Assembly (NCBI GenBank): GCA_029856365.1 | Contig: JAHQWW010000001.1 | Coordinates: forward strand, 17,548 to 81,547 | Direction: 5' to 3' | Length of the DNA: 64,000 bases | From: Candidatus Hodarchaeota archaeon | GTDB taxonomy: Archaea > Asgardarchaeota > Heimdallarchaeia > Hodarchaeales > Hodarchaeaceae | Part shown: positions 4,025-38,538 of the stretch, in pieces | How positions within the stretch are numbered: the first letter of the stretch is position 1 | Layout: every line of letters starts with the position of its first letter | Notes under the pieces: generated by a model | What the model was told of the DNA's origin: nothing | What the model saw: the letters and a program-made list of their open reading frames with translations, nothing else | Database searches by the model: none | Position numbers and translations under genes: made by a program

Positions 4025-5164
4025 TTATCCCTCTAAATCATATCCCATTTCAGGATCGAAAAAGAGTAAAATAATAGGTCTCATAGAGATTGGATAGCTT
4101 GAAAGAATTTTTATGAATCCTGTTATATTTGACATTTGGGGGGGAATAAAATTGAAATAATGGACCATATTATCCGATATATTCACTGTTAAATGACTTT
4201 CACCAAGAACAGTTGAAAAAGATGATGTAGCTTCGCCATTCAAAGGTTTAATTGATGTATCTAAGGATTTGATTGGGAAATTTTTGAGTAATTGAGAAAT
4301 TCGATTTATTGCTAAAATCAATTCAACATAACCAACTCTTAATACATTCAATAGATTATTATCAGTCGCATATGCGTACTTGAGAAAAAGCTGTGCTGAT
4401 TGTCTTGTAGGAACAGAAGACGGTGTAGTTAATGAGGGAATAGCTCCCGAGGCTCGTGCTATAGGCCCAGTAATCCCTGTAGTTTTTACATTATCTAAAG
4501 AAAGAATTTTCGGCTCTGCAAGAGTATTTTCAATCTTTAACTTTCTCTCGATATATTTTGCTATCAACCAAGCGTTTTTTTGTTGGAAAAGAATAATATT
4601 TTTAATTTCTGGAATTTTCGAAAGAATTAAAGGCTGGATTATGGATGCTGGGCGAATTAAACCAAATGGAAATCTAACCTGCCATAAAGATTCAAAAATA
4701 TATTGAAAAGAGGAATAGGATTCAAAAGAGATTATTGCAGTTTTATGTTCCTCAAAAAAACGGAAAATCCAATAAAATAGGCAAAAATAGATCATTGCTC
4801 TTTCTATATTCAGTAGTAACCCCCTATATTGCTTAATGTCATTTGAGACTATTGTCCCTGTAATTAATTCAATAGTTTCAGATAATTGGACTTGATGTGA
4901 GATAGCATTGATGGGTTGTTCTCTTTCAAGGAGGAAAAATAGTTTAGAAAGAGGAATATCAGTTTTTAATCTCTGCTTATTACGTTTTTTATGCAGATAC
5001 TTTCTTAAATCATTGATAGTTATTGTTGTCAAAAGTTGTGAGAATATTTCAGGGAAAAAACGGAAATTATTTATTTTTTTTGTAGTTTTAATCTCAATAT
5101 TCTCCATTTTGGAAACCTTGTTGTTACTCGGGATTTTACGGACAACTCTTTCATAAATCAACAA
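4025..5164 (-). CDS. Highly divergent NuoD / group-4 [NiFe]-hydrogenase large-subunit-like protein lacking metal-ligand cysteines
   Basis: Motif-level resemblance to the NuoD/HycE fold: TGITGPIARASG (cf. GxxGPxxRASG), LRVGYVELILAINRISQLLKNFP, and a C-terminus F-IPPQMSNI...FFDPEMGYDLEG (cf. R-PSFxNL...S-D-xxGExDR). There is no RxCGxC or DPCxxC. Confidence 0.45.
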   Translation of the reverse strand: MLIYERVVRKIPSNNKVSKMENIEIKTTKKINNFRFFPEIFSQLLTTITINDLRKYLHKKRNKQRLKTDIPLSKLFFLLEREQPINAISHQVQLSETIELITGTIVSNDIKQYRGLLLNIERAMIYFCLFYWIFRFFEEHKTAIISFESYSSFQYIFESLWQVRFPFGLIRPASIIQPLILSKIPEIKNIILFQQKNAWLIAKYIERKLKIENTLAEPKILSLDNVKTTGITGPIARASGAIPSLTTPSSVPTRQSAQLFLKYAYATDNNLLNVLRVGYVELILAINRISQLLKNFPIKSLDTSIKPLNGEATSSFSTVLGESHLTVNISDNMVHYFNFIPPQMSNITGFIKILSSYPISMRPIILLFFDPEMGYDLEG

Positions 5165-5327
5165 ATTTGTCTTTCTTTCTTTTTTTTTCTCCTTATATTA
5201 CAATATAAATTTCATCCTTATTTCATAAATTTATCGCGAAATAAATAATAATTGAAATCCTAAAGTCGAGAATTAATTGCCAAGGACATTCCACGGAGGC
5301 GTACGTTTGGGTTTTCGCCCAGAAAAA

Positions 5328-7445
5328 ATGAATATTGCCAAAATCAGAGTTAAAAAGGAACTAGGAAGGCTGTTCCTTAATGAAATTAATAGGAAATTCG
5401 AACTAGAGATTATTGACTTAGTAAAGACAGCCCAGTTTGAACCGTTGTCATTATCAGATGTAGAAACAGAAACCATCAACCTATCTGCTGAGTTTGTCCA
5501 AATAACAAAAATTTTGGGCAATATGGATTCAAAATACAGCGGAAGCATGAATCTTGAAAACCTTTCGTTATCTGATCTTAATGATAAAGCACAATCCTTA
5601 TTAAAATCAACTCAACCTTTAATAAAAGAATTAAAATCTATAAAGAACATTGAGGAGGAAATTTCTGATTTTAAGAAAACGATCAGTTCATTAAAGGCGA
5701 TCAAAAACATAGATATCCAAAATATCCAGGATATAGGAGAGGGAAGCCATTTCTATGCTGTTCTTGGATTTTTAAAGGGAATTCGTCAGTATCGTCTTGA
5801 AATGGCGCTTGATCAACTCACCGGGGGAGATTTTATATTTATTCCTTCTCCTTCCAGAAAAGCTAAGGTGATTTGTCTCGTTGGAGTAATGAAATCATAT
5901 CAAGCAGCACTGAATCGCTTACTCAGTGGATTAGGTTTTGATGAAGTTAAATTCCCTAAAGAACTTAAGGGTACTCCTACTGAAGCTATTGAGCAAGCAA
6001 AAACGGAATTAACAAAACGTAATAAAGAAATCAAAACTCTGCGACAAAATGTAAAAGAGATGGTGGAGGAACATGAGCTAGAAATTCGTGCTATGAAAGA
6101 ACAACTATCTTTAGAAGAAAATAGATTGAGAATTCTCCAACGGACCCAACTAAGAAAGCAACATTATATTATCTGGGCCTGGCTCCCAGCAAAAGCATCA
6201 AAACGATTTCTTAAGAAGATTCAGCAAATAGATCCTTCAATAACAGCTGAGATTATTAAACCGAAGCTTGAAAGTAGTGAATTTCCCACCAAAATCCGTA
6301 ATAATATCTATTCACGTTCATTCGAGGGTCTTGTTTATGGGTTTGGTGTCCCTGGATATAAAGAATGGGATCCCACCAAATTCTTGAGTATATTAATTCC
6401 TATCTTTTTTGGTATAATGTTTGGAGATGTTATTGACGGGTTGATAGTTCTTCTTATCGGACTTTATGGCTTAACTTTGAATCCTAAGAAGTATTCCAAA
6501 AACTCTATGCTTGCTGAACTTCAGAGTTACATTGATAAAGGGGGCCTAATTCTAATCACAGTTGGTACAACTGCTATGATATTCGGGTTCCTTTTCGGGA
6601 CTTATCGAGGGTTAGGGGGTCATCATGCCTTAGAAGTTGGCTTACCTGTTCTATGGTTTTCCCCAGAAATCGAGGGGGGGCAATTTGCTTTGTTAGAGCT
6701 TGCAATCTTTATAGGAGCATTAGTTATTGGATCTGCTTTAGTTATACAGTTTATGGGAGCATTGGGTCATAATAAGAGTGAGGCGATATTTCTTCCAGGA
6801 ATGTTCCTTCTTTTCTACATTGGTTTAGTATTTCTAGTATTCACTTTTGGCCCAAATCCAACACAATGGTTAACAGCCACAGAGGGAGTATTTGACTTGA
6901 AAGCCTTACAAACGATTGCTCAATATCAGCAGGAATTAATGCAACATCATCACATCGACTTCACCAGTCCAATTGGTACTATATTTGAAAGTCTAGGTTC
7001 TGCACATTGGGGAATTCCAGTATTTTCTGTCCCTGGAATAAATATAAGTTATCCACTCGCGTTAATGTTGTTTCCTCTAATCTTATCAGCAATTTATCAT
7101 TTTAGACATGGAATGGATGGAATCGGTGAATTACTTGACTACCTAATTACAATGATCTCAAATACAATTTCATTTGCGCGTATTTTCGCCTACACCATGG
7201 TTCATGGCTCTCTTTCTCTAGTTTTCATTCAACTGTTCTCTGGCAATGCACATACTCTTGTTGAATTTCTTCCTGGTATGATTTTAGGAGGGTTTGTAGT
7301 AATCCCTCTAGAATTATTAGTATCATTTCTTCAGTCTTTACGTCTTTGTTGGGTTGAATTTTTTTCAAAAATTCACTTTCAAGGATCAGGTTATTTATTT
7401 CAACCATTTATCGAAACACGATTATATACTACGACAGGTAGCTAA
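5328..7445 (+). CDS. atpI: A-type (A1Ao) ATP synthase subunit I
   Basis: About 705 aa from the ATG at 5328; the ORF-track start at 5277 is a TTG. It has an N-terminal cytoplasmic coiled-coil domain and a C-terminal multi-TM domain with the conserved Arg motif ISFARIFAYTMVHGSL. Confidence 0.9.
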   Translation: MNIAKIRVKKELGRLFLNEINRKFELEIIDLVKTAQFEPLSLSDVETETINLSAEFVQITKILGNMDSKYSGSMNLENLSLSDLNDKAQSLLKSTQPLIKELKSIKNIEEEISDFKKTISSLKAIKNIDIQNIQDIGEGSHFYAVLGFLKGIRQYRLEMALDQLTGGDFIFIPSPSRKAKVICLVGVMKSYQAALNRLLSGLGFDEVKFPKELKGTPTEAIEQAKTELTKRNKEIKTLRQNVKEMVEEHELEIRAMKEQLSLEENRLRILQRTQLRKQHYIIWAWLPAKASKRFLKKIQQIDPSITAEIIKPKLESSEFPTKIRNNIYSRSFEGLVYGFGVPGYKEWDPTKFLSILIPIFFGIMFGDVIDGLIVLLIGLYGLTLNPKKYSKNSMLAELQSYIDKGGLILITVGTTAMIFGFLFGTYRGLGGHHALEVGLPVLWFSPEIEGGQFALLELAIFIGALVIGSALVIQFMGALGHNKSEAIFLPGMFLLFYIGLVFLVFTFGPNPTQWLTATEGVFDLKALQTIAQYQQELMQHHHIDFTSPIGTIFESLGSAHWGIPVFSVPGINISYPLALMLFPLILSAIYHFRHGMDGIGELLDYLITMISNTISFARIFAYTMVHGSLSLVFIQLFSGNAHTLVEFLPGMILGGFVVIPLELLVSFLQSLRLCWVEFFSKIHFQGSGYLFQPFIETRLYTTTGS

Positions 7446-23201: not shown

Positions 23202-24581
23202 ATGTTTGGTGATCCTCAAACCTTTTGTAGATCAATTGCAGAGAAAAGTAACCTACAGGAAGGTACGAAGGGCGTTGAACGAATAATTTTAGAGATGTAC
23301 AGACGACAAACCCAAAAAATGACCAATAAAGAGCTTTCAAGGCATGTTCGTATCCCTATTCCTGTACTTTCTGCCGTTCGAGGTGAGATGTTAAAGGTAG
23401 GATTTCTAGAAACAAAGAGTATTTTATCAAGTACTGCTATTAAATGGATTCAAAAAAGAATGGGACTGTCTTATTCTTATGAATTTTTTCAGGATTTTAA
23501 CATAGACTCTTCGTTTAAGGTCTCAAAAAAGTACCTTGAATTTTTTAATCCAGTAATTGAATATTTAAATCGCCGTCCTCCTCCTGAATATAAATACGAT
23601 CAGTCTCGCAGTATTCCTGAAACTGTGTTGAAAAGAACACTGTTAATGTTAAGAAATGGAGATGTGGAGGGGAAAAGGATAGCCATCTTAGGAGATGATG
23701 ACGGTGTTTCTTTAGCGTTAGGATTTCTCGGATGTGCAAAAGAAATTCTTGTCATTGATATCGATTCCCGCATTCTTGAGTTTATTGATTCTTTTGCTCA
23801 TGAGAAAAACTTGGTAAATGTGTTGAACACGCAACTATGGGATATAAGAACTACATTTCCAAAAAAATGGCAGCAACATTTTGATACTTTTGAAACGGAT
23901 CCACCTTATACCGTTTCGGGTTTCAAACTATTCATTGATCAGGCCCTTACTCTCCTAGATCCAATGGAAGGTGGGAGAGGTTATGTTTCATTTGGAACTA
24001 AGTCACCTCACGATACCTGGGCGTGCCAACAACATCTTCTAGAAGCAGGTTTTTCGATTGAAGAGTTCTTTCAGGATTTTAATCGTTACCACGGAGCAAC
24101 AATTTTAGGTAATACTTCTAATCTGTATGTCATAAGTTCTGTTCCTCAAAAATTGCGCCTCTTAGAAACAAAACATTCTGAAAAGACAATCTATACTTTT
24201 GATGAAAAGAAAGTAAAAGACCTCCCAACTGTGGGTTATCAAATTATTGCTGAATTTTATGGAGTTAAACCCACTTATCTGAATGAAGCTAAGAAATTAA
24301 CCAATATCCTTCAAAGTGGTATCAAAAAAAGTCAGCTCCATATGGAGGAAATGTTTGTTAAAGAGTATTCTCCATATGGTTTGTCAATTATAGCCATTTT
24401 AGTGGAAAGTCATTGTCATTTGCATACATGGCCAGAATGGGATTATCTTTCCCTCGACATATTTGTATGTGAAGCGAGAGAAAAAGCGGAAAAATTATTT
24501 CAATATCTATTAAAAATAATAGATCCATTGGATTATCATAAATTCCAATTTTTTCGAGGTCGGCCTCCATCAATAGATTAG
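23202..24581 (+). CDS. Fusion: BpsA-like (DUF43) aminopropyltransferase + pyruvoyl-dependent S-adenosylmethionine decarboxylase (SpeH-like)
   Basis: An N-terminal wHTH, then GKRIAILGDDDGVSLA and FETDPPYT (BpsA family). The C-terminal roughly 115 aa carry LVESHCHLHTWPEWDYLSLDIFVC, the AdoMetDC self-cleavage ES|H site. Confidence 0.75.
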   Translation: MFGDPQTFCRSIAEKSNLQEGTKGVERIILEMYRRQTQKMTNKELSRHVRIPIPVLSAVRGEMLKVGFLETKSILSSTAIKWIQKRMGLSYSYEFFQDFNIDSSFKVSKKYLEFFNPVIEYLNRRPPPEYKYDQSRSIPETVLKRTLLMLRNGDVEGKRIAILGDDDGVSLALGFLGCAKEILVIDIDSRILEFIDSFAHEKNLVNVLNTQLWDIRTTFPKKWQQHFDTFETDPPYTVSGFKLFIDQALTLLDPMEGGRGYVSFGTKSPHDTWACQQHLLEAGFSIEEFFQDFNRYHGATILGNTSNLYVISSVPQKLRLLETKHSEKTIYTFDEKKVKDLPTVGYQIIAEFYGVKPTYLNEAKKLTNILQSGIKKSQLHMEEMFVKEYSPYGLSIIAILVESHCHLHTWPEWDYLSLDIFVCEAREKAEKLFQYLLKIIDPLDYHKFQFFRGRPPSID

Positions 24582-27173: not shown

Positions 27174-27431
27174 AATGGCTCACATCATTCAGAAAGAACA
27201 ATATTTTCTATATTACTGATTATCCTTTTATTTTATCTCGGAATGAGATCAGTATCAACTATAATAAAATCATATTATATAGAGAGGGTACAGCTTGCTA
27301 TGAACTTAATATTAACTTAGAACACATTAGAATTTTATGCTCATAAATTGTCCCCAAAAATTTATCTTATTTTTAAAGATCAAAAATAAATACATTATTT
27401 GATCGTGTTAATAAAAGGGTTGAATAAGCAA

Positions 27432-28304
27432 ATGCTAGACAAACAGACCGAAAAACTCGTGTTGCATGCTCAAAAAAATGAAATCACAGAATACCACATT
27501 TATAAAAAATTAGCGAAATCAACTAAAGACCCTCATAACCAAAAAATCCTCAACCAAATTGCTGAAGATGAGTTAAAGCATTATTCTTTTTGGAATCAAT
27601 ATACTCAACGAGAAGTAAGTCCAAGTAGAAAAAAGTGGTTCTATTACTTTATTGCAAGAATATTTGGTTTAACATTTGGTATTCGTCTAATGGAGCTCGG
27701 TGAAGGACAGGCTCAAGTCTTTTATACCACTATTACTAAGCTTATTCCTGAAGCACAATCCATCATCGAAGATGAAGAGGCTCATGAAAAAGAACTCATC
27801 AGTCTCATCGATGAAGAATTATTAGATTACATAGGATCTGTTGTTCTTGGTTTAAACGATGCGTTAGTAGAACTCACTGGGGCTCTCGCTGGATTGACAT
27901 TAGCCTTTCAGAACGCTCAACTAATTGCTCTAGCAGGTTTGATTACAGGAATCGCTGCCTCCTTGTCCATGGCCGCATCAGAATATCTTGCAACAAAAGA
28001 AGAACAAACAACGAAAAATCCTTTAAAAGCGGCAATATACACAGGTATCGCATATGTTGCTACTGTTTTTTTCCTTATTTTACCTTATTTAATCTTTAGT
28101 AATCAATCCCCACTTGTATGTCTAGCGATCACCCTTATCAATGCTATCCTTATAGTCTTAGTTTTTACATTCTATATTTCCGTGGCCAAGGATCTCTCGT
28201 TCAAGAAAAGATTCTCTGAAATTGTCGGAATCAGTTTAGGAGTAGCCAGTTTAACTTTCATTATTGGATTAGTTGTACGATCAGTCTTGAACATTGATAT
28301 ATGA
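27432..28304 (+). CDS. VIT1/CCC1-family iron/manganese transporter with N-terminal ferritin-like domain
   Basis: An Er/ferritin-like N-terminus (EITEYHIYKKLA...EDELKHYSFW) and a VIT1 core (GSVVLGLNDALVELTGALAG, SMAASEYL). ATG at 27432. Confidence 0.85.
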   Translation: MLDKQTEKLVLHAQKNEITEYHIYKKLAKSTKDPHNQKILNQIAEDELKHYSFWNQYTQREVSPSRKKWFYYFIARIFGLTFGIRLMELGEGQAQVFYTTITKLIPEAQSIIEDEEAHEKELISLIDEELLDYIGSVVLGLNDALVELTGALAGLTLAFQNAQLIALAGLITGIAASLSMAASEYLATKEEQTTKNPLKAAIYTGIAYVATVFFLILPYLIFSNQSPLVCLAITLINAILIVLVFTFYISVAKDLSFKKRFSEIVGISLGVASLTFIIGLVVRSVLNIDI

Positions 28305-28413: not shown

Positions 28414-29916
28414 ATGAGGATATTGAAATATTTCTCTTGTTCTGTTATTGGTTTCATTCTCTTATTAGCGATTACACCGATAGGTGGAGTCAAGGGCTGC
28501 ACTAATGCAGTCAGTGATTACTACTTCTCTGTCCCAGAAGAAATAGTAGAAGTAAGTATCAACTTAGATGGATCTGCAGATATTGAATACTGGATTACTT
28601 TTGTAGTAATAGATGGAGGTGATCCCATTGATATTGTGGATATTGGTTTTCCCAACAAGTTTTACAAACCCGGAAGTATAATAGCGGATGTTAATGGGAC
28701 ACCAGTGACAGATATTTCGAAATCTGCCGTAATTGACATTGGTGTTGAAATTCATTTACACGAATCCACGATTACAGGCACAGGAGTACTACATGTAAAG
28801 GGAAACCAACCGTACATGATATTTGAAGATACTGAAGAGGAAGATATGGCTTCTGTAGAATTCGGAAATACATGGTGGGATTCCACCTATACAACTGGCA
28901 CTACAAACTTAACTACTCGAATTATATTTCCTACAACTGTAGATGAAACAACATATACCAAGTATCACTATTCCGATAAACCAGATCATGAATATTTTTT
29001 ACTAAATGGACGTAAAGTATTCGAATGGAACGAACCATCCGCTTCTCCCTCAAGTCAATATACATATGGAGTTTCCTTTCCTAAAGCAGGAGTGACATGG
29101 TACACAAGTTATCCTCTCACCATAGAGGAACTTTTAATTATTGTGGGTATTAGTAGTGTTATACTAATTGCTATTGTGGTTGCTATTGTAAGTTATATAA
29201 GGAAACGACGTCGATTGATGGATTATATTCCTCCTTTTGTCTCAGTTCCCACCGCTGGTCCTAGAATGGATCTCCGTAGAGAAGAAGTAGCCATTGTTTT
29301 AGAAAAACCCGTGAATGTCACAATTTCCATGATTATTCTCACATTAATCCAAAAGGGCCTATTAAAGCAGTTTTCATCTGAGAGTCCCCTCCTTGAGCCC
29401 ATCAAAGGTGCTTCGAAAAAACACCTCCGAAAATATGAGCAAATAGTTCTGAAATCCATTCATACAGACCTCAGTATCGATGAGGATGATTTAGTGAAAG
29501 CAGTATCCAGTTTGGTTAAATCCACCCAACGTAGGATTCGAGGATATTCGTATGAAAGAACTGTGGAATATTATGAAAGATTAATTCGAGAATCTGTTGC
29601 AACAATTAAATCAGAATCCGATCCACGGAATGTTTCTACAGAAGCTTGGTTTTGGGCAATTCTGGATGAGGAATTCTTACCAGACTTAGAAGTGCAAATA
29701 ACTGAGCGTGAAGAGTATTACAATTATTACCCATGGTATTATCATTATGGTTATCATCGATGGCATTGGATCCCTCGTGGCCGATCCTTCACCCGCCGTG
29801 TGACAAGGATCAGTCATCCCATCCCCCGAGGAAGTAGTGGGGGTTCAAGAGGAGGTGGGGGTTGTGCTTGTGCTTGTGCTGGTTGTGCCTGCGCCTGTGC
29901 TGGAGGTGGTCGTTGA
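28414..29916 (+). CDS. DUF2207-like membrane protein with C-terminal Gly-flanked (Cys-Ala) repeat tail
   Basis: A signal/TM segment, a beta-rich ectodomain, a TM followed by RKRRR, a DUF2207-like segment (VAIVLEKPVNVTISMIILTLIQKGLL), an aromatic stretch YYNYYPWYYHYGYHRWHW, and the tail GSSGGSRGGGGCACACAGCACACAGGGR. Confidence 0.7.
   Translation: MRILKYFSCSVIGFILLLAITPIGGVKGCTNAVSDYYFSVPEEIVEVSINLDGSADIEYWITFVVIDGGDPIDIVDIGFPNKFYKPGSIIADVNGTPVTDISKSAVIDIGVEIHLHESTITGTGVLHVKGNQPYMIFEDTEEEDMASVEFGNTWWDSTYTTGTTNLTTRIIFPTTVDETTYTKYHYSDKPDHEYFLLNGRKVFEWNEPSASPSSQYTYGVSFPKAGVTWYTSYPLTIEELLIIVGISSVILIAIVVAIVSYIRKRRRLMDYIPPFVSVPTAGPRMDLRREEVAIVLEKPVNVTISMIILTLIQKGLLKQFSSESPLLEPIKGASKKHLRKYEQIVLKSIHTDLSIDEDDLVKAVSSLVKSTQRRIRGYSYERTVEYYERLIRESVATIKSESDPRNVSTEAWFWAILDEEFLPDLEVQITEREEYYNYYPWYYHYGYHRWHWIPRGRSFTRRVTRISHPIPRGSSGGSRGGGGCACACAGCACACAGGGR
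29863..29901 (+). repeat. In-frame (TGY GCY) hexanucleotide repeat encoding CACACA-G-CACACA
   Basis: tgt gct tgt gct tgt gct ggt tgt gcc tgc gcc tgt gct. The second block uses synonymous variants. Confidence 0.9.
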
Positions 29917-31242
29917 ATGAAACGGACAGGAAGTGCGGAATTAGTACATTTAAGAGAAGGGGAGGATGGAGATATTCGATTACATCTCCGTCGTCAAGGT
30001 GATAGTGGCCTTTTAATTATCAACGCGTCGAGAATATTGAACCTCAATTCTACTGCAACATTCTTTGTGGAAAGGATTCTGAAGGGTAAGACAGATTCAG
30101 AGATTATTAAGGAGCTCAAAGGTCTTTATCGTGTCAGTGAACAGCAAGCGAATCTAGATCTTCAATCATTGAAAGATATGATTCATACATTATCAACAAC
30201 AGATGATATTTGTCCCATTCATTCCCTTCAAATGGAAGAATCGGCTTTAACAGAACTATCACTAACTGCTCCTTTACGAATGGACTTAGCAATCACTTAT
30301 AGATGTAATAACAAATGTGCACATTGCTATAATCAACCGGAGTCACAAAATGCAGCTGAATTAGATACAAACACTTGGAAGTCCATTCTAGGACGACTTT
30401 GGGAGGTTTCTATTCCTCATGTGACTTTTACAGGAGGTGAACCCACGTTACGCCACGATCTGCCTGATTTAATTGACCATGCGGAGAATATTGGAATAGT
30501 TACTGGACTTATTACAAATGGTCGAAATCTAAAGGATGTAAACTATGTAGATGGGTTGGTAAATAACGGTCTAGATCATATTCAGATTACATTTGAAAGC
30601 GTAGATGAAAGGATTCACAACCAAATGGTGGGAAATGAACATGCGTGGGTAGAGACAGTTGAAGGTATAAAAAATGCTATAGATACCCCTATCTATACTC
30701 TGACGAACACTACATTGACTCGTTTGAATACTCCCAAGATAGAAGAGACCGTTGAATTCCTTAACAGTCTTGATGTGGAACAATTCGCCTGTAACTCAAT
30801 TATATATGCCGGAAAAGGGAAAAATGTTTCCAAGATAGCCTTAACAGAGAGTGAGCTAATTCCGATTCTCGAATCGATTCAGGATATAGCAGATGAATAT
30901 GGTATGCAGTTTATTTGGTACACACCGACTCGTTACTGTGAACTTGATCCGAATAACCTAGGATTAGGAGTGAAGAGATGTTCTGCTTCACATTTAGCAA
31001 TGGCTATTGAACCCAATGGAACCGTAATTCCATGTCAGAGTTACTATAAAGGATTGGGTCATATTCTGAATGATAGTTGGGAGAGTATCTGGAATAATCC
31101 TCTATCACAAAAGCTGCGAACTCATGCAAACGTCCCTGATGAGTGTCAAAATTGTAATCAACTTGATCTCTGTGGTGGCGGTTGTCCTCTGAGTTTCTAT
31201 CGCGAGGAATATATATGTCCCGAAAGTCAAGCCAACGATTGA
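29917..31242 (+). CDS. Radical SAM/SPASM-domain enzyme with N-terminal PqqD-like (RRE) domain, putative peptide/protein-modifying maturase
   Basis: CNNKCAHC (CxxxCxxC) at about aa 130, GGEPTL, the C-terminal SPASM cysteines (CSASH..PCQSY..CQNCNQLDLCGGGCP), and an N-terminal PqqD-like segment LNLNSTATFFVERILKGKTDSEIIKEL. The ATG abuts the upstream TGA. Confidence 0.9.
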   Translation: MKRTGSAELVHLREGEDGDIRLHLRRQGDSGLLIINASRILNLNSTATFFVERILKGKTDSEIIKELKGLYRVSEQQANLDLQSLKDMIHTLSTTDDICPIHSLQMEESALTELSLTAPLRMDLAITYRCNNKCAHCYNQPESQNAAELDTNTWKSILGRLWEVSIPHVTFTGGEPTLRHDLPDLIDHAENIGIVTGLITNGRNLKDVNYVDGLVNNGLDHIQITFESVDERIHNQMVGNEHAWVETVEGIKNAIDTPIYTLTNTTLTRLNTPKIEETVEFLNSLDVEQFACNSIIYAGKGKNVSKIALTESELIPILESIQDIADEYGMQFIWYTPTRYCELDPNNLGLGVKRCSASHLAMAIEPNGTVIPCQSYYKGLGHILNDSWESIWNNPLSQKLRTHANVPDECQNCNQLDLCGGGCPLSFYREEYICPESQAND

Positions 31243-32006
31243 GCTCAAGGGACTTATTAACAGTAGAAGATGATGCTAGGTATTTTACTGAGCTCTACCA
31301 AGGACAATTAGACTGGACTACTTCAACCAGAAAGCGATTATACAGACAAATGGATCTATTCCATGCACAACAGATTTTGGAAGTGGGTTCTGGCACTGGA
31401 GTGATTCTACGTGAGATTAAATCCATAAATCCAAGAGCCAGACTCATTGGCCTTGACCAAAACTTGCTAGCACTAAAATATTCACAAAAAATAGTGGCAA
31501 ATGATACATTGATTCAAGGAGACGGTGCTGTATTACCCTTCTCTTCCCAAAGCTTTGATATTGTGTTGTGTCACTATTTTCTTATGTGGGTTGAAAATCC
31601 CATTACCACTCTTCGGGAAATGATGAGAGTAACGCGAAATGGAGGATGGATTGCATGCTTAGCTGAACCAGATTATGGAGGGCGAATGGATTATCCTGAT
31701 AATGAAATCTGGATGGAACTGCTTCTAAATTCCATCTCTGGAGCAGATCCTTTCATAGGAAGAAAATTAAGGACATATTTCTATCAAATAGGACTTAAGG
31801 CACATGTGGGGCTGCAATCAATTGTTTTGCCTCCTGAAGCTGTAAATAACCTTTATGAGGCTGAATTAGCAAAATTGAAGCGATTTTGTTCCCCTGAAAA
31901 TCATCTAAAATTAGATAGATTAACTCAATTGTTCAGATCTCATAAACCTGGAGAATTATTTAGCTTTATGCCAGTACTTTTTGCTATAGCTCGAAAAACT
32001 GCATAA
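31215..32006 (+). CDS. Class I SAM-dependent methyltransferase
   Basis: Motif I is ILEVGSGTGVI. There is an acidic loop LIGLDQN and a post-II FDIVLCHYFLMWV. The ATG at 31215 overlaps the rSAM gene by 28 nt; the ORF-track start at 31182 is a TTG. Confidence 0.8.
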   Translation: MSRKSSQRLSSRDLLTVEDDARYFTELYQGQLDWTTSTRKRLYRQMDLFHAQQILEVGSGTGVILREIKSINPRARLIGLDQNLLALKYSQKIVANDTLIQGDGAVLPFSSQSFDIVLCHYFLMWVENPITTLREMMRVTRNGGWIACLAEPDYGGRMDYPDNEIWMELLLNSISGADPFIGRKLRTYFYQIGLKAHVGLQSIVLPPEAVNNLYEAELAKLKRFCSPENHLKLDRLTQLFRSHKPGELFSFMPVLFAIARKTA

Positions 32007-32013
32007 ATACTTT

Positions 32014-32256
32014 CTATTCCTTCTCTTCAAGGCCCAGTAGTCTTAAATCTAACAATTGATTAACAACACATCTTCGAACGAATTCAGAATAATTATCAGC
32101 TATTCCTAATTCAATAGCTTTTTTAATGGAATTATAAAGTGGGTCTGAAACCCGTAACAAAATTGTCTTAGCTTTCTCTTTCCTTTTAATGTTCGTTTCC
32201 CTCTTTTGAGTAGATTTCTCTAAGTTTTGAGATCTTGGCATAATTATTCCCATCAT
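32014..32256 (-). CDS. Ribbon-helix-helix (CopG/Arc-like) DNA-binding protein
   Basis: 80 aa. ILLRVSDPLYNSIKKAIELG...SEFVRRCVVNQL fits a beta-alpha-alpha RHH layout. Confidence 0.5.
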   Translation of the reverse strand: MMGIIMPRSQNLEKSTQKRETNIKRKEKAKTILLRVSDPLYNSIKKAIELGIADNYSEFVRRCVVNQLLDLRLLGLEEKE

Positions 32257-33090: not shown

Positions 33091-34320
33091 TCAATTAATG
33101 GTTAGTATATCAAATTGTTTGGTCTCTTCATCGTATTTTTCATCCTTACAGAGAAGAGCTTTAGAATCCTTTAAATTTATTAAACGTGTTTTTGTTAGCT
33201 CAAAAGCATATTTTGATGAATCCACTCCTATCCAACGTCTATTTAATTTTTCTGCTACTGCTAAGGTTGTACCAGATCCACAAAAGAAATCAGCAATAAT
33301 ATCACCCTCCTTGGAAGTCATCTTTATAATTCTTTCGATTAAAGCCTCAGGTTTTTGAGTCGGATAACCCAAGCGTTCTTTATCGTTAGAAGCGAGAGCT
33401 GGAATATCTGTCCATAAGTTTCCAATTTTCCTTCCTAGATATTCATCTGCATAACGTTTGTATCGTGGTCTTCCTTTCCCTGTCCAAAAAATAAGATAAG
33501 GATTTTTCGTTAATCTTTTATCAAATGTTTCTTGGGTCCAGCGCCAGCCCATCTTGGTTGTAACTTCTTTGCCATTAATTATTCTTTTCTCTCCAATACT
33601 ATATGCGTTCGAGCTCTGTTCAAGTTTCTCATGTGTAAATGTTCGTCCTGTTTCTTTTTCAATATGGGGAAATTTCTCTTTTTTTTCTTTCTCTGTTAAC
33701 GATTGGTATTGTTGGTGGTATACATAATCAGTAGTTTTACTATACCAAAGGATGACATCCGTCATTACATCCATCGTTGAAGATAAGTGGTGTCCTGGGG
33801 TTCGTTGCCAAATGATATCAGCTCTGAAGTTTTCATACCCAAAAATCTCATCCATTATCACCTTGACATAATGCACTGCATGCCAGTCTAGATGGACAAA
33901 AATCGAACCATTATTAGCCAAAAGCTTTGCTATCAGTAACAATCGTTGATACATAAAATTCAAATAAGCATCCATACCCCTTATTCCCCAAGTATCCCTA
34001 AATCCATTTTCTACAACAAGTGAAGAGTTGCTAGCTGTTTCTTCTTGACTACTTTCAGTTTGAGTGCTGATTTTGAATGTTGTTCCTGAAGCAAAAGGTG
34101 GATCAATATAGATAACGTTAATTTTTCCTGCAAACTCTTTTAGAAGGGACGCAATGACAAACTTGTTTTCCCCTAATATGAGTTTATTACTCCAGGCCTC
34201 TGAAGTTTTTAGAGGGTTTATAGATTCGACCACTTCAAGTGAGTGAGGTATTTCTATGCGTCTTCTTTTCACTTCAGATTTTCCCCGCCAAATAAGTTGA
34301 CAATTCTCAATTACTGTCAT
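33091..34320 (-). CDS. Beta-class N6-adenine/N4-cytosine DNA methyltransferase (type III Mod-like, stand-alone)
   Basis: Motif IV (VIYIDPPFASG) precedes YPTQKPEALIERII and motif I (ADFFCGSGTTLAVAEKLNRRWIGVD). The N-terminal LIWRGK is as in Mod proteins. Confidence 0.85.
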   Translation of the reverse strand: MTVIENCQLIWRGKSEVKRRRIEIPHSLEVVESINPLKTSEAWSNKLILGENKFVIASLLKEFAGKINVIYIDPPFASGTTFKISTQTESSQEETASNSSLVVENGFRDTWGIRGMDAYLNFMYQRLLLIAKLLANNGSIFVHLDWHAVHYVKVIMDEIFGYENFRADIIWQRTPGHHLSSTMDVMTDVILWYSKTTDYVYHQQYQSLTEKEKKEKFPHIEKETGRTFTHEKLEQSSNAYSIGEKRIINGKEVTTKMGWRWTQETFDKRLTKNPYLIFWTGKGRPRYKRYADEYLGRKIGNLWTDIPALASNDKERLGYPTQKPEALIERIIKMTSKEGDIIADFFCGSGTTLAVAEKLNRRWIGVDSSKYAFELTKTRLINLKDSKALLCKDEKYDEETKQFDILTIN

Positions 34321-34589: not shown

Positions 34590-34958
34590 ATGAGCTACCA
34601 AGATACAATGAACTCTCTGATTCAAAATGGTTATATTTCTATTGTCACTATTCTTGACGCTAATGGAGGAACATACTGGACTAACCAACCTGAATGGCAA
34701 GTGGATGGTACAGCCGTGTTAACAGCTTGGAGGAATAAGGAACCAGGAGTTACCATCGGAGGAACCCGTTTCTCTGCAATAATGAATGAATGGGAAACTG
34801 GTTTTTTCGTGGCTCGAAATGTTGGCGGAGCAGGAATAGTCGTGATAGCCCGTGCCCCGAATGGATATTATTTTTTGACATGGACACCAGGGGATGTACA
34901 GATTCCTCCTACAAACATCCACGCTGAAGTGTCTCGGATGGCAGCCTTGTTCAAATAA
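34590..34958 (+). CDS. Profilin-like protein (Asgard-type eukaryotic signature protein)
   Basis: 122 aa. By eye it aligns along its full length with eukaryotic profilins as I recall them: SYQ (cf. SWQ), ILDANGGTYWT (cf. AAIxxxDGxxWA), GVTIGGTRFSAI (cf. GxxLxGxKYxxI), GGAGIVV, and a C-terminal helix. A GAGGT Shine-Dalgarno-like sequence lies 7 nt upstream. Confidence 0.7.
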   Translation: MSYQDTMNSLIQNGYISIVTILDANGGTYWTNQPEWQVDGTAVLTAWRNKEPGVTIGGTRFSAIMNEWETGFFVARNVGGAGIVVIARAPNGYYFLTWTPGDVQIPPTNIHAEVSRMAALFK

Positions 34959-35331: not shown

Positions 35332-38300
35332 TTGAAATCAAAGATTGAAGAGTTCTATCCCCTCTATAGAAAAGTGGCAAGGTTTTTACTTCAAAACATA
35401 AATGGTATCCATGATAATGAGAGAAAGAAAGAATTTATTAACAATTTTATGATACAAATGTTGATATTCTGGTTTATCCAGAAAAAAGAGTTTTTCAACG
35501 ATGATAAGAATTACTTTATAACAAAATTTCATGAATTCGACATTAAAAACCCATTGCAGGGGAATAATAACTACTTCAACTTTCTTATCTATTTCTTAGA
35601 ACAAATTAACCTTCATTTAGATGATGGATATATTGAAGACAAGATTGTTGGAAAACTTGTAATTCCTAGACCAGTTATCTTTCTTAATGTAGATAATAGT
35701 GTCAAAAAAATCTCTATCCCCAATAAATGCCTTTACAATGAAGAAAAAACTGAACAATTGTTGAATAAGTCGTCTGGGAAAAGAAGTGGTGATTTACCAT
35801 TATTTAACTTATTTGAAAACGAGATAAACCAATTTAATGGCTTCCTTTTAGGTGAAATATATGAGAATCTAATTACTCATAAGGACAGGAAGATTTCAGG
35901 TTCTTATTATACACCTGAAGCAATTACTTTCTTTTTATGCAAAACCACAATTGAATCTTATCTTCTTGAAAAAGTGAATCTTAAATTCGATTCTAAGTTC
36001 AAAACTATAAACTCAATGATTAAATCTCATGATGTAAGGGTCATAGAATATCTATTAATGGAATTACAGCAAATTAAAATCCTTGATCCTGCTGTTGGTA
36101 CTGCACACCTTCTAGAAAGTGCTGTTAAGATTCTTACAGAGATATATGAAAAAATTTGGCGGGTAGCAAGGAAAATAAGCCTCAAGAAAGGTATAGAAGT
36201 TATAACAACTGAGAACGACGGGTGTTTAAAGCTCATAAATATCCTAGAAATTACTAATGAAGATGATTTTAAATTTTCAGTAATATTATACCATATTCTT
36301 CCAATGAATGTTTATGGCGTTGATATAAATCCTGATGTTTTGAAGATTGCAAAAGCAAGACTCTTCTTAATATCAATTGAGTATTTAAATATTCATAAAC
36401 ACTATTTTAAAAGTCTCCCAGAAGTCTACATCAATTTAAAGGAAGGAAATTCGCTTCTAGGGTACATACAGTTTGAGAAGGACAAATTGGTTAAACAATC
36501 AAAACTTGAGTCATATTTAACAGAAATAACTCCTGTCACTCCTTCGGAATCGATAAAAACGGATTTAATTTTGCTAGAATATTTACAAAATGCAGCTATT
36601 TCTTTGGATATTAGAGGACATCTAATAAATGAGGTGGAAGACCTTAATTTAATTTTAACTCAGAAAGAGATTAATATTATTAACACTCGAAAGGTTTTAA
36701 GGACTAAAGAAAAGCTACTCAAAATATTATATGCTTCTATGAATACTCAGTTTGCAAAACCGTTACAAAACCTTTTAAACAGAATAACAGACCAAATGAA
36801 CTCAAAATTGGATGAAAAGCTTTCTAATGAATTTAATATTGATTTAGATCAACTCAAAAAAGTTAAAACTTTCCATTGGATTTGTGAATTTTCCAACGTA
36901 TTTTTGAAAGAAGGAGGGTTTGATATTACAATAGTCAATCCCCCTTATTTGGGTGAAAGTGGGAATAAAGAGCTTTTCAGGGTTTATGCTAAGGCATCAC
37001 AAGAATATTATGAGGGAAAAATGGATCTGTGGTATTTTTTTCTTCATAGAAGTATAGATTTAATGGTTACTCGGGCTTATTCTTCTTTCATTGTATCAAG
37101 TTATTGGATCACAGCTTCAGGTGCAGCGAAATTACGTGACAGACTGCTTTCAGATACCTTTATTGTGCGATATATCAATTTTGGAGAAAACAGGATTTTT
37201 AGTACTGCTCAGGGAGTACATACAAACGTCATAACCTTTAAAAAAACAAGAAAGTCAAATAATAATATTGAATGTATCCTCTTTGATAAGACATATCCAC
37301 ATGGTACGGATCTTTTTCAAAAGATACCAGTACAACATATTTTCACAGCTGATCAGAAGAAACTCATTCTTAAGAATTGGGATCGATATCTTCATTTTTT
37401 ACCAAAGAATCTAGGAGTAATTATTGAGTGTATTACTGAAAATTCAACAACGCTGAAATCAAGCGGCTACTATGTAAAAGAGGGCATAGTAACAGGCCTT
37501 AATAACATAACAAAGCGACTAATTGGAAAATATAAGTTACCAGATGACTGGGCGGGGATAGGGGTGTTCATACTAAACAAAGAAAATCCTCAAGATTTGA
37601 ATGTAATCCAATCACTTTCTGAAGATGAAAAATTCCATTTAAAGAAGTTTTACAAGAATTCTGACATATCACGATATTCCACAACAGTTCAAACGACAAA
37701 AAATATTCTTTACTTAAACAGACATACTGTTAACTTGAATCAGCTCCCAAAAATAAAAATGCACATACAAAAATTCCGGGGAATATTAAAACAATCATTA
37801 GATAATCCACCATATATTAACAGGCCTCGGACACAAAACATTTTCACATCCCCTAAGATAATAACTCCACAAAGAAGTGTTCGAAATACCTTTGCCTACA
37901 ATTCGTATGATTGGTATGCTGCCCAAGATGTGTACTACATCTTGAATGAGGAGAACGACAAAGAGAAGCTAAAAAGGCTGTTACTAATCTTAAACTCAAA
38001 GTTGGGGTATTTTTGGTTATATTGGATGGGAAAGCGAAAAGGAAAACATCTCGAACTATTTGGTGAGCCATTAGGATTTTTTCCCATTCCCTCTGATTTG
38101 GAAAAATTTTCAGTATTGTCTAATATTTCTGATTACTTTCTCTTCCTCTACACGATCAAAAGCAAAGAGATTCGTTTTCAGCAAATTATTAGTTATTTTC
38201 AGGAAGAAATTGCAGATATGCTCGTATTTGAGCTTTACTTTATAAAAAAGATCCAAGGAAACAAAATTAATCAGTCTGAAAATTCTTCTTTATTAGAATT

Positions 38301-38538
38301 TTTATCAAAAGAGGTTAAGAACATTGAATATGATCAATGGGTTAAGCTCCACTACAAAGAACAGATTGAAAAAGGATTGAGTAAGGAAGAAAAACTTCAG
38401 AAATCGACTCTTGAGAATGAAAACTTAGAAATAATTGAAGAATGCTATACATCACTTAAAAAGAGTAAACAGGTTTGTAAGCTTATAACCCAAATAAAAT
38501 CAAATTATTTGGTTATGACAATAGAGGAAAGAACTTAA
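35332..38538 (+). CDS. Large gamma-class N6-adenine DNA methyltransferase (Eco57I/PglX-like architecture, no recognisable nuclease domain)
   Basis: SGSYYTPEAITFFL, motif I ILDPAVGTAHLL, and motif IV FDITIVNPPYLG. The N-terminal helical domain has an LPLFNLFE (cf. NGGLF) element, and there is a long C-terminal TRD-like region. TTG start. Confidence 0.85.
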   Translation: MKSKIEEFYPLYRKVARFLLQNINGIHDNERKKEFINNFMIQMLIFWFIQKKEFFNDDKNYFITKFHEFDIKNPLQGNNNYFNFLIYFLEQINLHLDDGYIEDKIVGKLVIPRPVIFLNVDNSVKKISIPNKCLYNEEKTEQLLNKSSGKRSGDLPLFNLFENEINQFNGFLLGEIYENLITHKDRKISGSYYTPEAITFFLCKTTIESYLLEKVNLKFDSKFKTINSMIKSHDVRVIEYLLMELQQIKILDPAVGTAHLLESAVKILTEIYEKIWRVARKISLKKGIEVITTENDGCLKLINILEITNEDDFKFSVILYHILPMNVYGVDINPDVLKIAKARLFLISIEYLNIHKHYFKSLPEVYINLKEGNSLLGYIQFEKDKLVKQSKLESYLTEITPVTPSESIKTDLILLEYLQNAAISLDIRGHLINEVEDLNLILTQKEINIINTRKVLRTKEKLLKILYASMNTQFAKPLQNLLNRITDQMNSKLDEKLSNEFNIDLDQLKKVKTFHWICEFSNVFLKEGGFDITIVNPPYLGESGNKELFRVYAKASQEYYEGKMDLWYFFLHRSIDLMVTRAYSSFIVSSYWITASGAAKLRDRLLSDTFIVRYINFGENRIFSTAQGVHTNVITFKKTRKSNNNIECILFDKTYPHGTDLFQKIPVQHIFTADQKKLILKNWDRYLHFLPKNLGVIIECITENSTTLKSSGYYVKEGIVTGLNNITKRLIGKYKLPDDWAGIGVFILNKENPQDLNVIQSLSEDEKFHLKKFYKNSDISRYSTTVQTTKNILYLNRHTVNLNQLPKIKMHIQKFRGILKQSLDNPPYINRPRTQNIFTSPKIITPQRSVRNTFAYNSYDWYAAQDVYYILNEENDKEKLKRLLLILNSKLGYFWLYWMGKRKGKHLELFGEPLGFFPIPSDLEKFSVLSNISDYFLFLYTIKSKEIRFQQIISYFQEEIADMLVFELYFIKKIQGNKINQSENSSLLEFLSKEVKNIEYDQWVKLHYKEQIEKGLSKEEKLQKSTLENENLEIIEECYTSLKKSKQVCKLITQIKSNYLVMTIEERT

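Follow-up and report, generated by a model that had tools for sequence, protein, structure and literature searches.

A radical SAM cassette with a candidate substrate in the Cys-Ala tail of a membrane protein, found in bacteria and Asgard archaea

Radical S-adenosylmethionine (SAM) enzymes that act on peptides are normally mined via the short precursor peptides encoded beside them. The characterized ones that combine a SPASM region with a recognition element (RRE) for peptides made on ribosomes and modified after translation (RiPPs) and act on Cys-rich cores, among them AlbA, SkfB, CteB, PapB and QhpD, make thioethers. The substrates of sactipeptide and ranthipeptide maturases (SkfB, AlbA, CteB/SCIFF and PapB) are stand-alone peptides, ~40-60 aa long, that begin with a leader. 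The SPASM radical SAM enzymes QhpD, whose substrate is QhpC, and anSME modify Cys of a protein that stays functional, and in borosins (OphMA) a protein of >400 aa has the core as its very C-terminal end. Here we analyse 64,000 nucleotides from a Candidatus Hodarchaeota archaeon (contig JAHQWW010000001.1, positions 17,548 to 81,547 of the forward strand), referred to as a whole as the window, which carry at 28414-32006 a cassette of three co-directional genes. The cassette encodes a membrane protein ending in a Cys-Ala repeat (the tail protein), an RRE-radical SAM/SPASM enzyme and a SAM methyltransferase. It has in common with the sactipeptide and ranthipeptide systems the domain order RRE-radical SAM-SPASM and a Cys-rich core encoded directly upstream of the enzyme. 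Unlike in those systems, a 500-aa membrane protein carries the core as its C-terminal end, any recognition element would lie inside the tail protein itself and the window cassette has no protease or exporter. We consider it likely that the cassette carries out a protein-anchored, RiPP-style maturation in which a whole protein rather than a short peptide is modified. The three genes are:

28414-29916 (+): gene for the 500-aa tail protein, the proposed substrate protein, read as an open reading frame (ORF)
29917-31242 (+): gene for the 441-aa RRE-radical SAM/SPASM enzyme, its ATG abutting the tail protein stop
31215-32006 (+): gene for a class I SAM methyltransferase of 263 aa, identified with Pfam, overlapping the radical SAM gene by 28 nt; alternative start TTG at 31182

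Conservation of the tail and its pairing with the radical SAM enzyme

The 17-residue Cys-Ala tail is identical across homologues whose bodies are only 21-44% identical. In a first homology search, 118 of 118 full-length matches ended in CACACA(CA)GCACACAGGGR, with bodies ~35% identical to that of the window protein. Because this search was seeded on shared words and could have favoured the tail, it was repeated with the tail left out, using residues 1-440 as the query against 1.84 billion representatives. The tail-free query returned 529 matches, and 118 of the 150 best carry (Cys-Ala/Val)n...GGGR tails; 64 of these 150 have the canonical tail and 54 a variant, the remainder being mostly truncated sequences. 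The variants are (CA)5GGGR, (CA)3G(CA)4GGGR, CVCACAxCACACACVSCACACAGGG[AV][RG] and the short HCACACAGGGR. The family, with a median length of ~560 aa, comprises 529 clusters at 50% identity and >4,000 at 90%. The tail-coding DNA of 122 genome stretches is in every case distinct, differing at synonymous positions with every synonymous codon used, and this free variation indicates that selection acts on the tail peptide sequence. A subfamily found among loci L121-L200 (e.g. L129 1798-3432, L146, L188 and L190) carries ten-Cys tails of the form CVCACA(A/H/S)CACACACVSCACACAGGG(VG/AR). The segment before the tail also differs in this subfamily, here called CV-long, and reads IPGAEFANNIA...EKFANAI(I/L)P.

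Tail protein and radical SAM enzyme are near-obligate neighbours, in both directions and in bacteria as well as archaea. A genome scan seeded on the tail, using a degenerate DNA pattern, gave at least 120 loci, 116 of which have the ≥400 nt of downstream sequence needed for assessment. Among the loci listed, ~100 of these 116 have an orthologue of the radical SAM enzyme (40-52% identity) starting within ~100 nt of the tail stop. Most of the loci found through the tail belong to Anaerolineae and other Chloroflexota, one of them (L044) to the cultured Ornatilinea apprima P3M-1, and others to Zixibacteria, Acidobacteriota/Aminicenantes, Planctomycetota, Coatesbacteria, Sabulitectum/Hyd24-12, Clostridia/Syntrophothermus, Hodarchaeota and Promethearchaeota. 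The gene pair occurs in >10 phyla, including Fermentibacteria-like groups, Firmicutes and several Asgard lineages. A metagenome scan seeded on the radical SAM enzyme gave the converse picture: of 78 loci, 63 have a tail stop within 400 nt upstream and 9 more a tail protein on the same strand 0.06-1.9 kb upstream, the upstream sequence is too short to judge in 5, and one (L133) lacks a tail protein. The co-occurrence that the first-pass annotation of the window had proposed to survey is thus found from either end, at ~100/116 and 72/78 loci. Between tail-protein bodies and adjoining enzymes, pairwise identities correlate with r = 0.91 over 57 loci, indicating co-divergence. Two-way pairing and co-divergence together give the pattern of a substrate encoded next to its enzyme and inherited with it. 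Upstream of the radical SAM gene in L133 are, instead, a gene for a tetratricopeptide repeat protein and a 75-aa hydrophobic ORF.

The two genes are directly joined in the window. The junction reads GGA GGT GGT CGT TGA ATG, with the TGA at 29914-29916 abutting the ATG at 29917 as first annotated, and its layout indicates that the radical SAM gene is translationally coupled to the tail protein gene. The Hodarchaeales cassette leaves no space for another precursor gene, because this stop abuts the next start and the gene that follows overlaps. The tail Gly codons (GGA GGT G, 29902-29908) also form a perfect Shine-Dalgarno-like GGAGGTG 8 nt before the radical SAM ATG. Since the Gly codons differ in other genomes, this double role is a local one and does not account for GGGR being conserved.

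Architecture of the two core proteins

The tail protein combines a predicted extracytoplasmic domain, a membrane span and a predicted cytoplasmic part that leads into the tail. Its parts are as follows:

28417-28473 (+): N-terminal hydrophobic helix, residues 2-20, signal peptide or membrane anchor, from an AlphaFold2 (AF2) helix and the sequence
28525-29082 (+): extracytoplasmic beta-sandwich, residues 38-223, modelled by AF2 with a predicted local distance difference test score (pLDDT) >90
29122-29217 (+): transmembrane (TM) helix, residues 237-268, then RKRRR, from AF2 and the sequence, with the cytoplasmic side predicted
29218-29784 (+): cytoplasmic domain, residues 269-457, with a winged-helix-like unit, a helical bundle and the aromatic stretch YYNYYPWYYHYGYHRWHW, from AF2
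29785-29826 (+): pre-tail motif SFTRRVTRISHPIP, residues 458-471, from its conservation a candidate RRE recognition ("leader-like") element
29827-29862 (+): Gly/Ser/Arg-rich flexible linker, residues 472-483, from the sequence and an AF2 pLDDT <50
29863-29913 (+): core tail CACACA-G-CACACA-GGGR, residues 484-500, proposed modification site, with invariant columns C486-R500

ORF and AF2 model (mean pLDDT 82.8) bear out what had been read from the sequence at first, namely a signal or TM segment, a beta-rich ectodomain, a TM helix with RKRRR, an aromatic stretch and a CA-repeat end. The cytoplasmic part is modelled as alpha/beta and residues 473-500 as disordered. The C-terminal half is predicted to be cytoplasmic because RKRRR follows the TM helix (positive-inside rule), and a cytoplasmic tail would therefore be within reach of an oxygen-sensitive Fe-S enzyme. 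The C-terminus is GSSGGSRGGGGCACACAGCACACAGGGR, in which SFTRRVTRISHPIPRGSSGGSRGGGG precedes CACACA-G-CACACA-GGGR, and the last 60 residues contain 0 Met. In the family alignment K314, Y341, G377, Y387, W414 and W441 of the cytoplasmic domain are invariant, as are F459 and P469 of the pre-tail motif, with P471 nearly so. The bacterial counterpart of this motif is FTxxVTxVTNPPP, and bacteria also have a (L/I)PGA(D/E)FA motif. The linker between pre-tail motif and core differs in length and sequence across homologues. Foldseek searches with the modelled ectodomain ranked ribophorin I of the human oligosaccharyltransferase (8b6l_O, 6s7o_E) and the N-domain of M1 aminopeptidases highest; these matches are weak (TM-scores 0.25-0.29), may reflect just a common beta-sandwich and provide no functional lead.

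The radical SAM enzyme has the three elements that characterize RRE-dependent radical SAM/SPASM peptide maturases, a CX3CX2C motif, a SPASM region and an RRE:

29941-30198 (+): RRE (PqqD-like) domain, residues ~9-94, from Pfam PqqD, AF2 and conservation
30304-30327 (+): CX3CX2C radical SAM cluster motif, C130/C134/C137, in the sequence CNNKCAHC
30937-31221 (+): SPASM region with Cys 341, 355, 373, 410, 413, 419, 423 and 434, from Pfam SPASM and conservation

The first-pass annotation had recognized CNNKCAHC, a SPASM-type cluster and a PqqD-like N-terminus in this 441-aa protein, and all three hold at Pfam cut-offs: Radical_SAM matches residues 126-282 (E 1.4e-22), SPASM residues 355-414 (E 1.1e-10) and PqqD residues 35-85 (E 1.3e-5, 25.8 bits, cut-off 23.4). 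The N-domain of the AF2 model (pLDDT 78) has the RRE fold, in which three helices come after four strands, and R21, H23, L24, R25, L33, N36, N44 and A47 are invariant in it. C130, C134 and C137 are invariant in 40/40 homologues. Eight conserved Cys, in the pattern CX12GX4C ... CX2CX5CX3C ... C as read from the sequence, would bind two auxiliary Fe-S clusters in the SPASM region.

Its closest solved relatives by sequence are PqqE (6c8v, 4.6e-20), SkfB (2.5e-17) and SuiB (2e-13), and by fold (Foldseek) SkfB, SuiB, PqqE and CteB with up to 465 aligned columns, SkfB, SuiB and CteB aligning over the full length; all four are RRE-bearing maturases of RiPPs. anSME (4k37, TMq ~0.55) and the epimerase EpeE (8ai4) are also among the structural neighbours. 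The enzyme reaches no curated NCBIfam equivalog. Its best model is PqqE (TIGR02109) at 138.8 bits against a cut-off of 381.35 (122.8 bits for the Ornatilinea orthologue WP_075064616.1), followed by NirJ2, AhbD, GeoRSP, ScmE, SkfB, mycofactocin and AlbA at 79-123 bits. The sactipeptide models are not reached (AlbA NF012164 79/850 bits, SkfB TIGR04403 95/300, StsB NF045574 76.6/625), nor are those of the heme enzymes AhbC/AhbD/NirJ (94-123 bits, cut-offs 500-650). These heme-modifying enzymes are not known to carry an RRE, which is present here.

Proposed maturation and competing explanations

From these computations we infer that the Cys-Ala tail is very probably the substrate of the radical SAM enzyme, as the first-pass annotation had proposed for the end of this large membrane protein. 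The case rests on the two-way pairing with an RRE-radical SAM enzyme, on the tail as the hallmark of the family and on its free synonymous variation. The C-terminus of the tail protein would be organized like a RiPP precursor turned around, with pre-tail motif, variable linker and core in succession. The RRE would bind the pre-tail segment as a leader peptide is bound and the linker would let the CA core reach the active site, where the 5'-deoxyadenosyl radical would take hydrogen from the core and the Cys thiols would be modified repeatedly. The product would stay attached to the protein, which is probable because clustering of the genes neighbouring the loci found no protease, peptidase or transporter/exporter conserved in the cassettes. 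The methyltransferase, where present (the window included), would add a second step, probably S- or carboxyl-methylation.

Should the tail be the substrate, a Cys-to-carbon thioether cross-link of the sactionine or ranthionine type is the chemistry that we place first, at somewhat less than an even chance and by analogy, because the characterized RRE-SPASM enzymes on Cys-rich cores make thioethers. Such cross-linking would turn a floppy tail into a rigid cross-linked knot. Epimerization, formylglycine formation and new chemistry on the tail are the alternatives.

Several observations weigh against a substrate tail that is cross-linked by this enzyme. Approximately 7 of the 116 assessable tail proteins have no adjoining radical SAM gene among the loci listed (L002, L005, L021, L024, L038, L105 and L107), L021 being a second copy in a metagenome-assembled genome whose other copy, L058, has one. 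L133 (3441-5628) encodes radical SAM enzyme and methyltransferase with no CA-tail protein within 3.4 kb upstream. By hidden Markov model (HMM) score the catalytic core is approximately as near to the heme-modifying NirJ/AhbD as to PqqE. The first-pass annotation had named a grouping with NirJ/AhbD together with a failed RRE model as grounds for abandoning a peptide substrate; the PqqD model is passed and the core scores are ambiguous, so that the assignment as a peptide maturase rests on RRE, full-length structural matches and gene context rather than on the core alone. The eight SPASM-region Cys could fully ligate both auxiliary clusters and thus leave no evident open iron site for a substrate thiol, a point that is not decisive. 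AF2 is uninformative on the tail (pLDDT <50). Tails that lack the central Gly or have just (CA)2-3 speak against one fixed hairpin cross-link pattern, and the palindromic CACACA-G-CACACA as a single Cys/Ala-paired hairpin is weakened by (CA)5GGGR, (CA)3G(CA)4GGGR and the shorter tails. Finally, methyltransferase and a second, degenerate radical SAM protein (pseudo-radical SAM) are lineage-specific accessories and not universal.

A tail that is the substrate of a chemistry other than thioether formation is a possible alternative, although we regard it as unlikely when its variants are taken jointly. These include an epimerization as by YydG/EpeE or PoyD, which would bring alternate residues to the D-configuration and give an alternating D/L segment, a formylglycine formation as by anSME, and some novel reaction, for instance a methylene or thioacetal bridging via the methyltransferase. 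The strict two-residue (C-A/V)n period suggests distinct roles for alternate positions, tails without the central Gly fit a simple hairpin cross-link poorly, anSME and EpeE are among the structural neighbours, and the eight SPASM-region Cys recall the fully ligated clusters of anSME. Against this, the anSME target C/S-x-P/A-x-R is absent from the tail CACACAGCACACAGGGR, where no Cys is followed by x-P/A-x-R, and an RRE, present in the best structural matches over the full length (SkfB, SuiB and CteB), is lacking from anSME and the YydG-type enzymes. A methyl-dependent bridge is not the universal chemistry, because most cassettes of the CV-long subtype are without a methyltransferase.

It is considerably less probable that the tail is an unmodified element for metal or Fe-S binding (metallothionein-like CxC) or for docking, with the enzyme acting on a small molecule or on another protein and the membrane protein serving just to recruit or partner it. 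CxC repeats are classic thiolate-cluster ligands, and both the near-equal core scores for NirJ2/AhbD and PqqE and the few genes found without their partner next door would suit this explanation. It leaves unexplained an RRE, a domain known for binding peptide substrates, as well as the near-obligate adjacency and translational coupling. Absolute invariance of Ala, Gly and the terminal Arg is hardly needed for metal binding alone. Moreover, no gene for an alternative substrate or a small-molecule pathway is conserved in the cassette, as judged by clustering of the neighbouring genes.

Release of the modified tail as a small diffusible product or cofactor, as for pyrroloquinoline quinone (PQQ) or mycofactocin, would make the 480-residue body an oversized leader. 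PQQ and mycofactocin do arise from residues near a peptide C-terminus, and PqqE is both the top curated family and the top sequence match in the PDB. The enzyme scores far below the PqqE and mycofactocin cut-offs, the cassettes conserve none of the processing and export genes that release would call for, and the body, unlike a disposable leader, is conserved and well folded, a membrane protein of several domains in which many residues are invariant. We therefore regard this explanation as very improbable. That the tail is a low-complexity DNA accident or a miscalled frame beside a coincidental radical SAM gene is refuted, Gly/Cys-rich low-complexity tails being common on DUF2207- and TPM-type membrane proteins but the same 17 residues recurring in hundreds of homologues through all synonymous codons, a tail-less query recovering them and the co-occurrence running both ways.

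If the tail is a substrate modified in place, the (Cys-Ala)n-GGGR segment might be turned by the RRE-radical SAM enzyme into a structure so far unseen on any protein, for example a ladder of several contiguous thioethers or a new sulfur-rich redox or metal cofactor bound to the protein; we put this forward tentatively and with slightly less assurance than the thioether itself. Such a structure would define a widespread class of protein-anchored RiPP-type modification. Anaerobic Chloroflexota, several candidate phyla and Asgard archaea would make use of it on a receptor-like membrane protein, at the side that faces the cytoplasm.

Cassette composition, genomic surroundings and relation to known systems

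Tail protein and RRE-radical SAM enzyme form the universal core of the cassette. ORF clustering of the tail-seeded loci listed gave five recurrent families: tail protein (117 loci), radical SAM enzyme with its paralogue (110), a ~125-aa protein (84), methyltransferase (62) and a PAS-like protein (23). Since the genome loci are 8-kb blocks, accessory-gene counts are lower bounds. The gene for the ~125-aa protein lies directly upstream of that for the tail protein. Its product combines TM segments at the N-terminus with a CxxC...CPxC zinc ribbon and ends in ...CPYC..Y....EEPKW, with ...Y(Q/E)(L/I/V)xEEPKW near-invariant. It is found in bacteria, Promethearchaeota and Heimdallarchaeaceae (examples are L044 from Ornatilinea apprima, WP_075064618.1, L059, L066 and L203 5965-6354) and probably partners the tail protein in the membrane. 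The Heimdallarchaeaceae cassette consists of this small protein, tail protein, radical SAM enzyme and methyltransferase, and the Hodarchaeales cassette, the window included, of the last three only. A tblastn search of the window with 81 of the ~125-aa proteins gave no significant match, so that Hodarchaeales lack it at this locus.

The third protein of the window cassette is a generic class I SAM methyltransferase of the Methyltransf_11/25/31 type. It matches Methyltransf_11 (E 2.6e-18, 66.9 bits, cut-off 21.2) and reaches no NCBIfam equivalog, BioC being the best at 62 bits versus 185. The start at ATG 31215, placed 28 nt inside the radical SAM gene from the outset, agrees with an orthologue of 260 aa that overlaps by 28 nt in a related Hodarchaeales contig (L201). 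Orthologues follow the radical SAM gene in Asgard archaea, Planctomycetota, Zixibacteria, Coatesbacteria and many Chloroflexi. As a cassette member the methyltransferase thus stands for the window but does not extend to all systems: 13 of the 14 cassettes with a CV-long tail are without it, and they mostly lack the pseudo-radical SAM protein too.

Chloroflexi cassettes carry a paralogue of the radical SAM enzyme between the active enzyme and the methyltransferase (e.g. L044 oriented 4723-5883, WP_075064615.1). It keeps an RRE-like N-terminus (RLHLR..G.G.L..NAS..LHLN.TA) and is taken to be a pseudo-enzyme because CX3CX2C and all SPASM cysteines are lost; it would act as a non-catalytic RRE partner. 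Of the 40 loci with ≥5 kb of downstream sequence, 35 have the active radical SAM enzyme, 31 the pseudo-radical SAM protein and 29 the methyltransferase. The PAS-like protein of ~113 aa follows the radical SAM gene in 23 loci from some Anaerolineae only (L004 3871-4212 and L109 4976-5323, oriented), with PAS_4 as its best match below the cut-off (E 3.5e-4). An uncharacterized ~335-aa protein follows it in some loci (L004, L036 and L067).

The genes flanking the cassette differ between Hodarchaeales contigs. An 80-aa ORF downstream (32014-32256, -) had been labelled a ribbon-helix-helix (RHH) regulator, a label that finds no match in Pfam, NCBIfam or PADLOC; its strand-helix-helix pattern makes an RHH-like fold plausible. 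The gene directly upstream (27399-28304, +) encodes a fusion in which a membrane domain of the VIT1 type (MbfA-like iron exporter) is joined to a rubrerythrin/ferritin-like domain. Both were considered as cassette members and rejected, having no counterpart in L201 or among the ≥120 tail-seeded loci. Further downstream are an N6_N4_Mtase DNA methylase (33091-34320, -) and a 1068-aa Eco57I/TaqI_C-type restriction-modification protein (35332-38538, +). PADLOC links neither of them to the cassette, in which it detects only generic radical SAM-core similarity to pVip and methyltransferase-domain similarity, with no match for the tail protein. An anti-phage defence function was rejected on these grounds, as this similarity is generic only. 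Elsewhere in the window, a 122-aa ORF (34590-34958, +) matches Pfam Profilin (E 8.4e-6, 26.4 bits, cut-off 25), an Asgard-type eukaryotic signature protein that agrees with an origin of the window in Hodarchaeales (Heimdallarchaeia), to which homologues likewise assign it, and a single 459-aa ORF (23202-24581, +) joins BpsA_C (branched-chain polyamine synthase, E 3e-47) to AdoMet_dc (S-adenosylmethionine decarboxylase, E 1e-25).

The tail protein resembles DUF2207 proteins (PF09972/PF20990) in its plan of N-terminal signal or TM segment, extracytoplasmic beta domain, TM segment(s), cytoplasmic part and Gly-rich tail. We know of no CA tails or radical SAM partners in DUF2207 proteins. The cytoplasmic part had been called DUF2207-like at first, and this reduces to a sub-threshold likeness: in 62 homologues DUF2207_C is touched in 12 (best E 0.008) and DUF2207 in 2 (best E 0.078), and the window protein has no match to either at E ≤ 0.01. 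Membership is rejected as lying below the Pfam threshold. Searches of the tail protein and its Ornatilinea orthologue WP_075064617.1 against Pfam and NCBIfam matched no family, the orthologue being labelled DUF2207 in UniProt and the RefSeq/UniProt names of the Ornatilinea proteins being generic.

The cassette is a variant of RiPP-type maturation that is undescribed by Pfam, NCBIfam or PADLOC models or in the searched literature, in agreement with the initial failure to match it to a described system. A literature search found no description of CACACAGGGR/CACACAGCACACA tails with radical SAM enzymes, of a DUF2207-radical SAM pairing or of an RRE enzyme on such a tail; a Methanococcus voltae proteomics paper (PMC9431491) followed as a lead is unrelated. 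PqqE/PqqD likewise combines a PqqD-type RRE with a SPASM enzyme. Here the RRE is part of the enzyme instead of a protein of its own like PqqD, a Glu/Tyr pair is missing from the proposed substrate and there are no pqqB/C/F genes. anSME differs in having no RRE and in a target C/S-x-P/A-x-R inside a folded sulfatase, and QhpC is a ~80-110-aa subunit with a leader; neither of these substrates has a repeat tail or is a membrane protein. In borosins the large protein is itself the methyltransferase, which modifies its own tail and from which the core is freed afterwards, whereas here the body is non-enzymatic and the enzyme separate. To our knowledge none of these precedents (anSME, QhpD and borosins) pairs an enzyme bearing an RRE with a membrane protein that ends in a repeat tail.

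Compared with classical RiPP systems, the short stand-alone precursor with an N-terminal leader is replaced by the C-terminus of a 500-aa membrane protein as the sole Cys-rich candidate. Mining via precursor peptides misses a cassette in which a membrane protein of 500-600 residues carries the core as its tail. For biochemistry the target is a clean one, with one enzyme and one defined tail as the minimal system, a cultured host in Ornatilinea apprima P3M-1 and a three-gene Asgard version. Once the chemistry of the tail is solved, radical SAM enzymology could gain a reaction or a class of product that is new to it, and a first functional handle on the DUF2207-like membrane protein family could follow. 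Hardly any known RiPP core is as conserved as this one of 17 residues, which implies that its product is precise and important.

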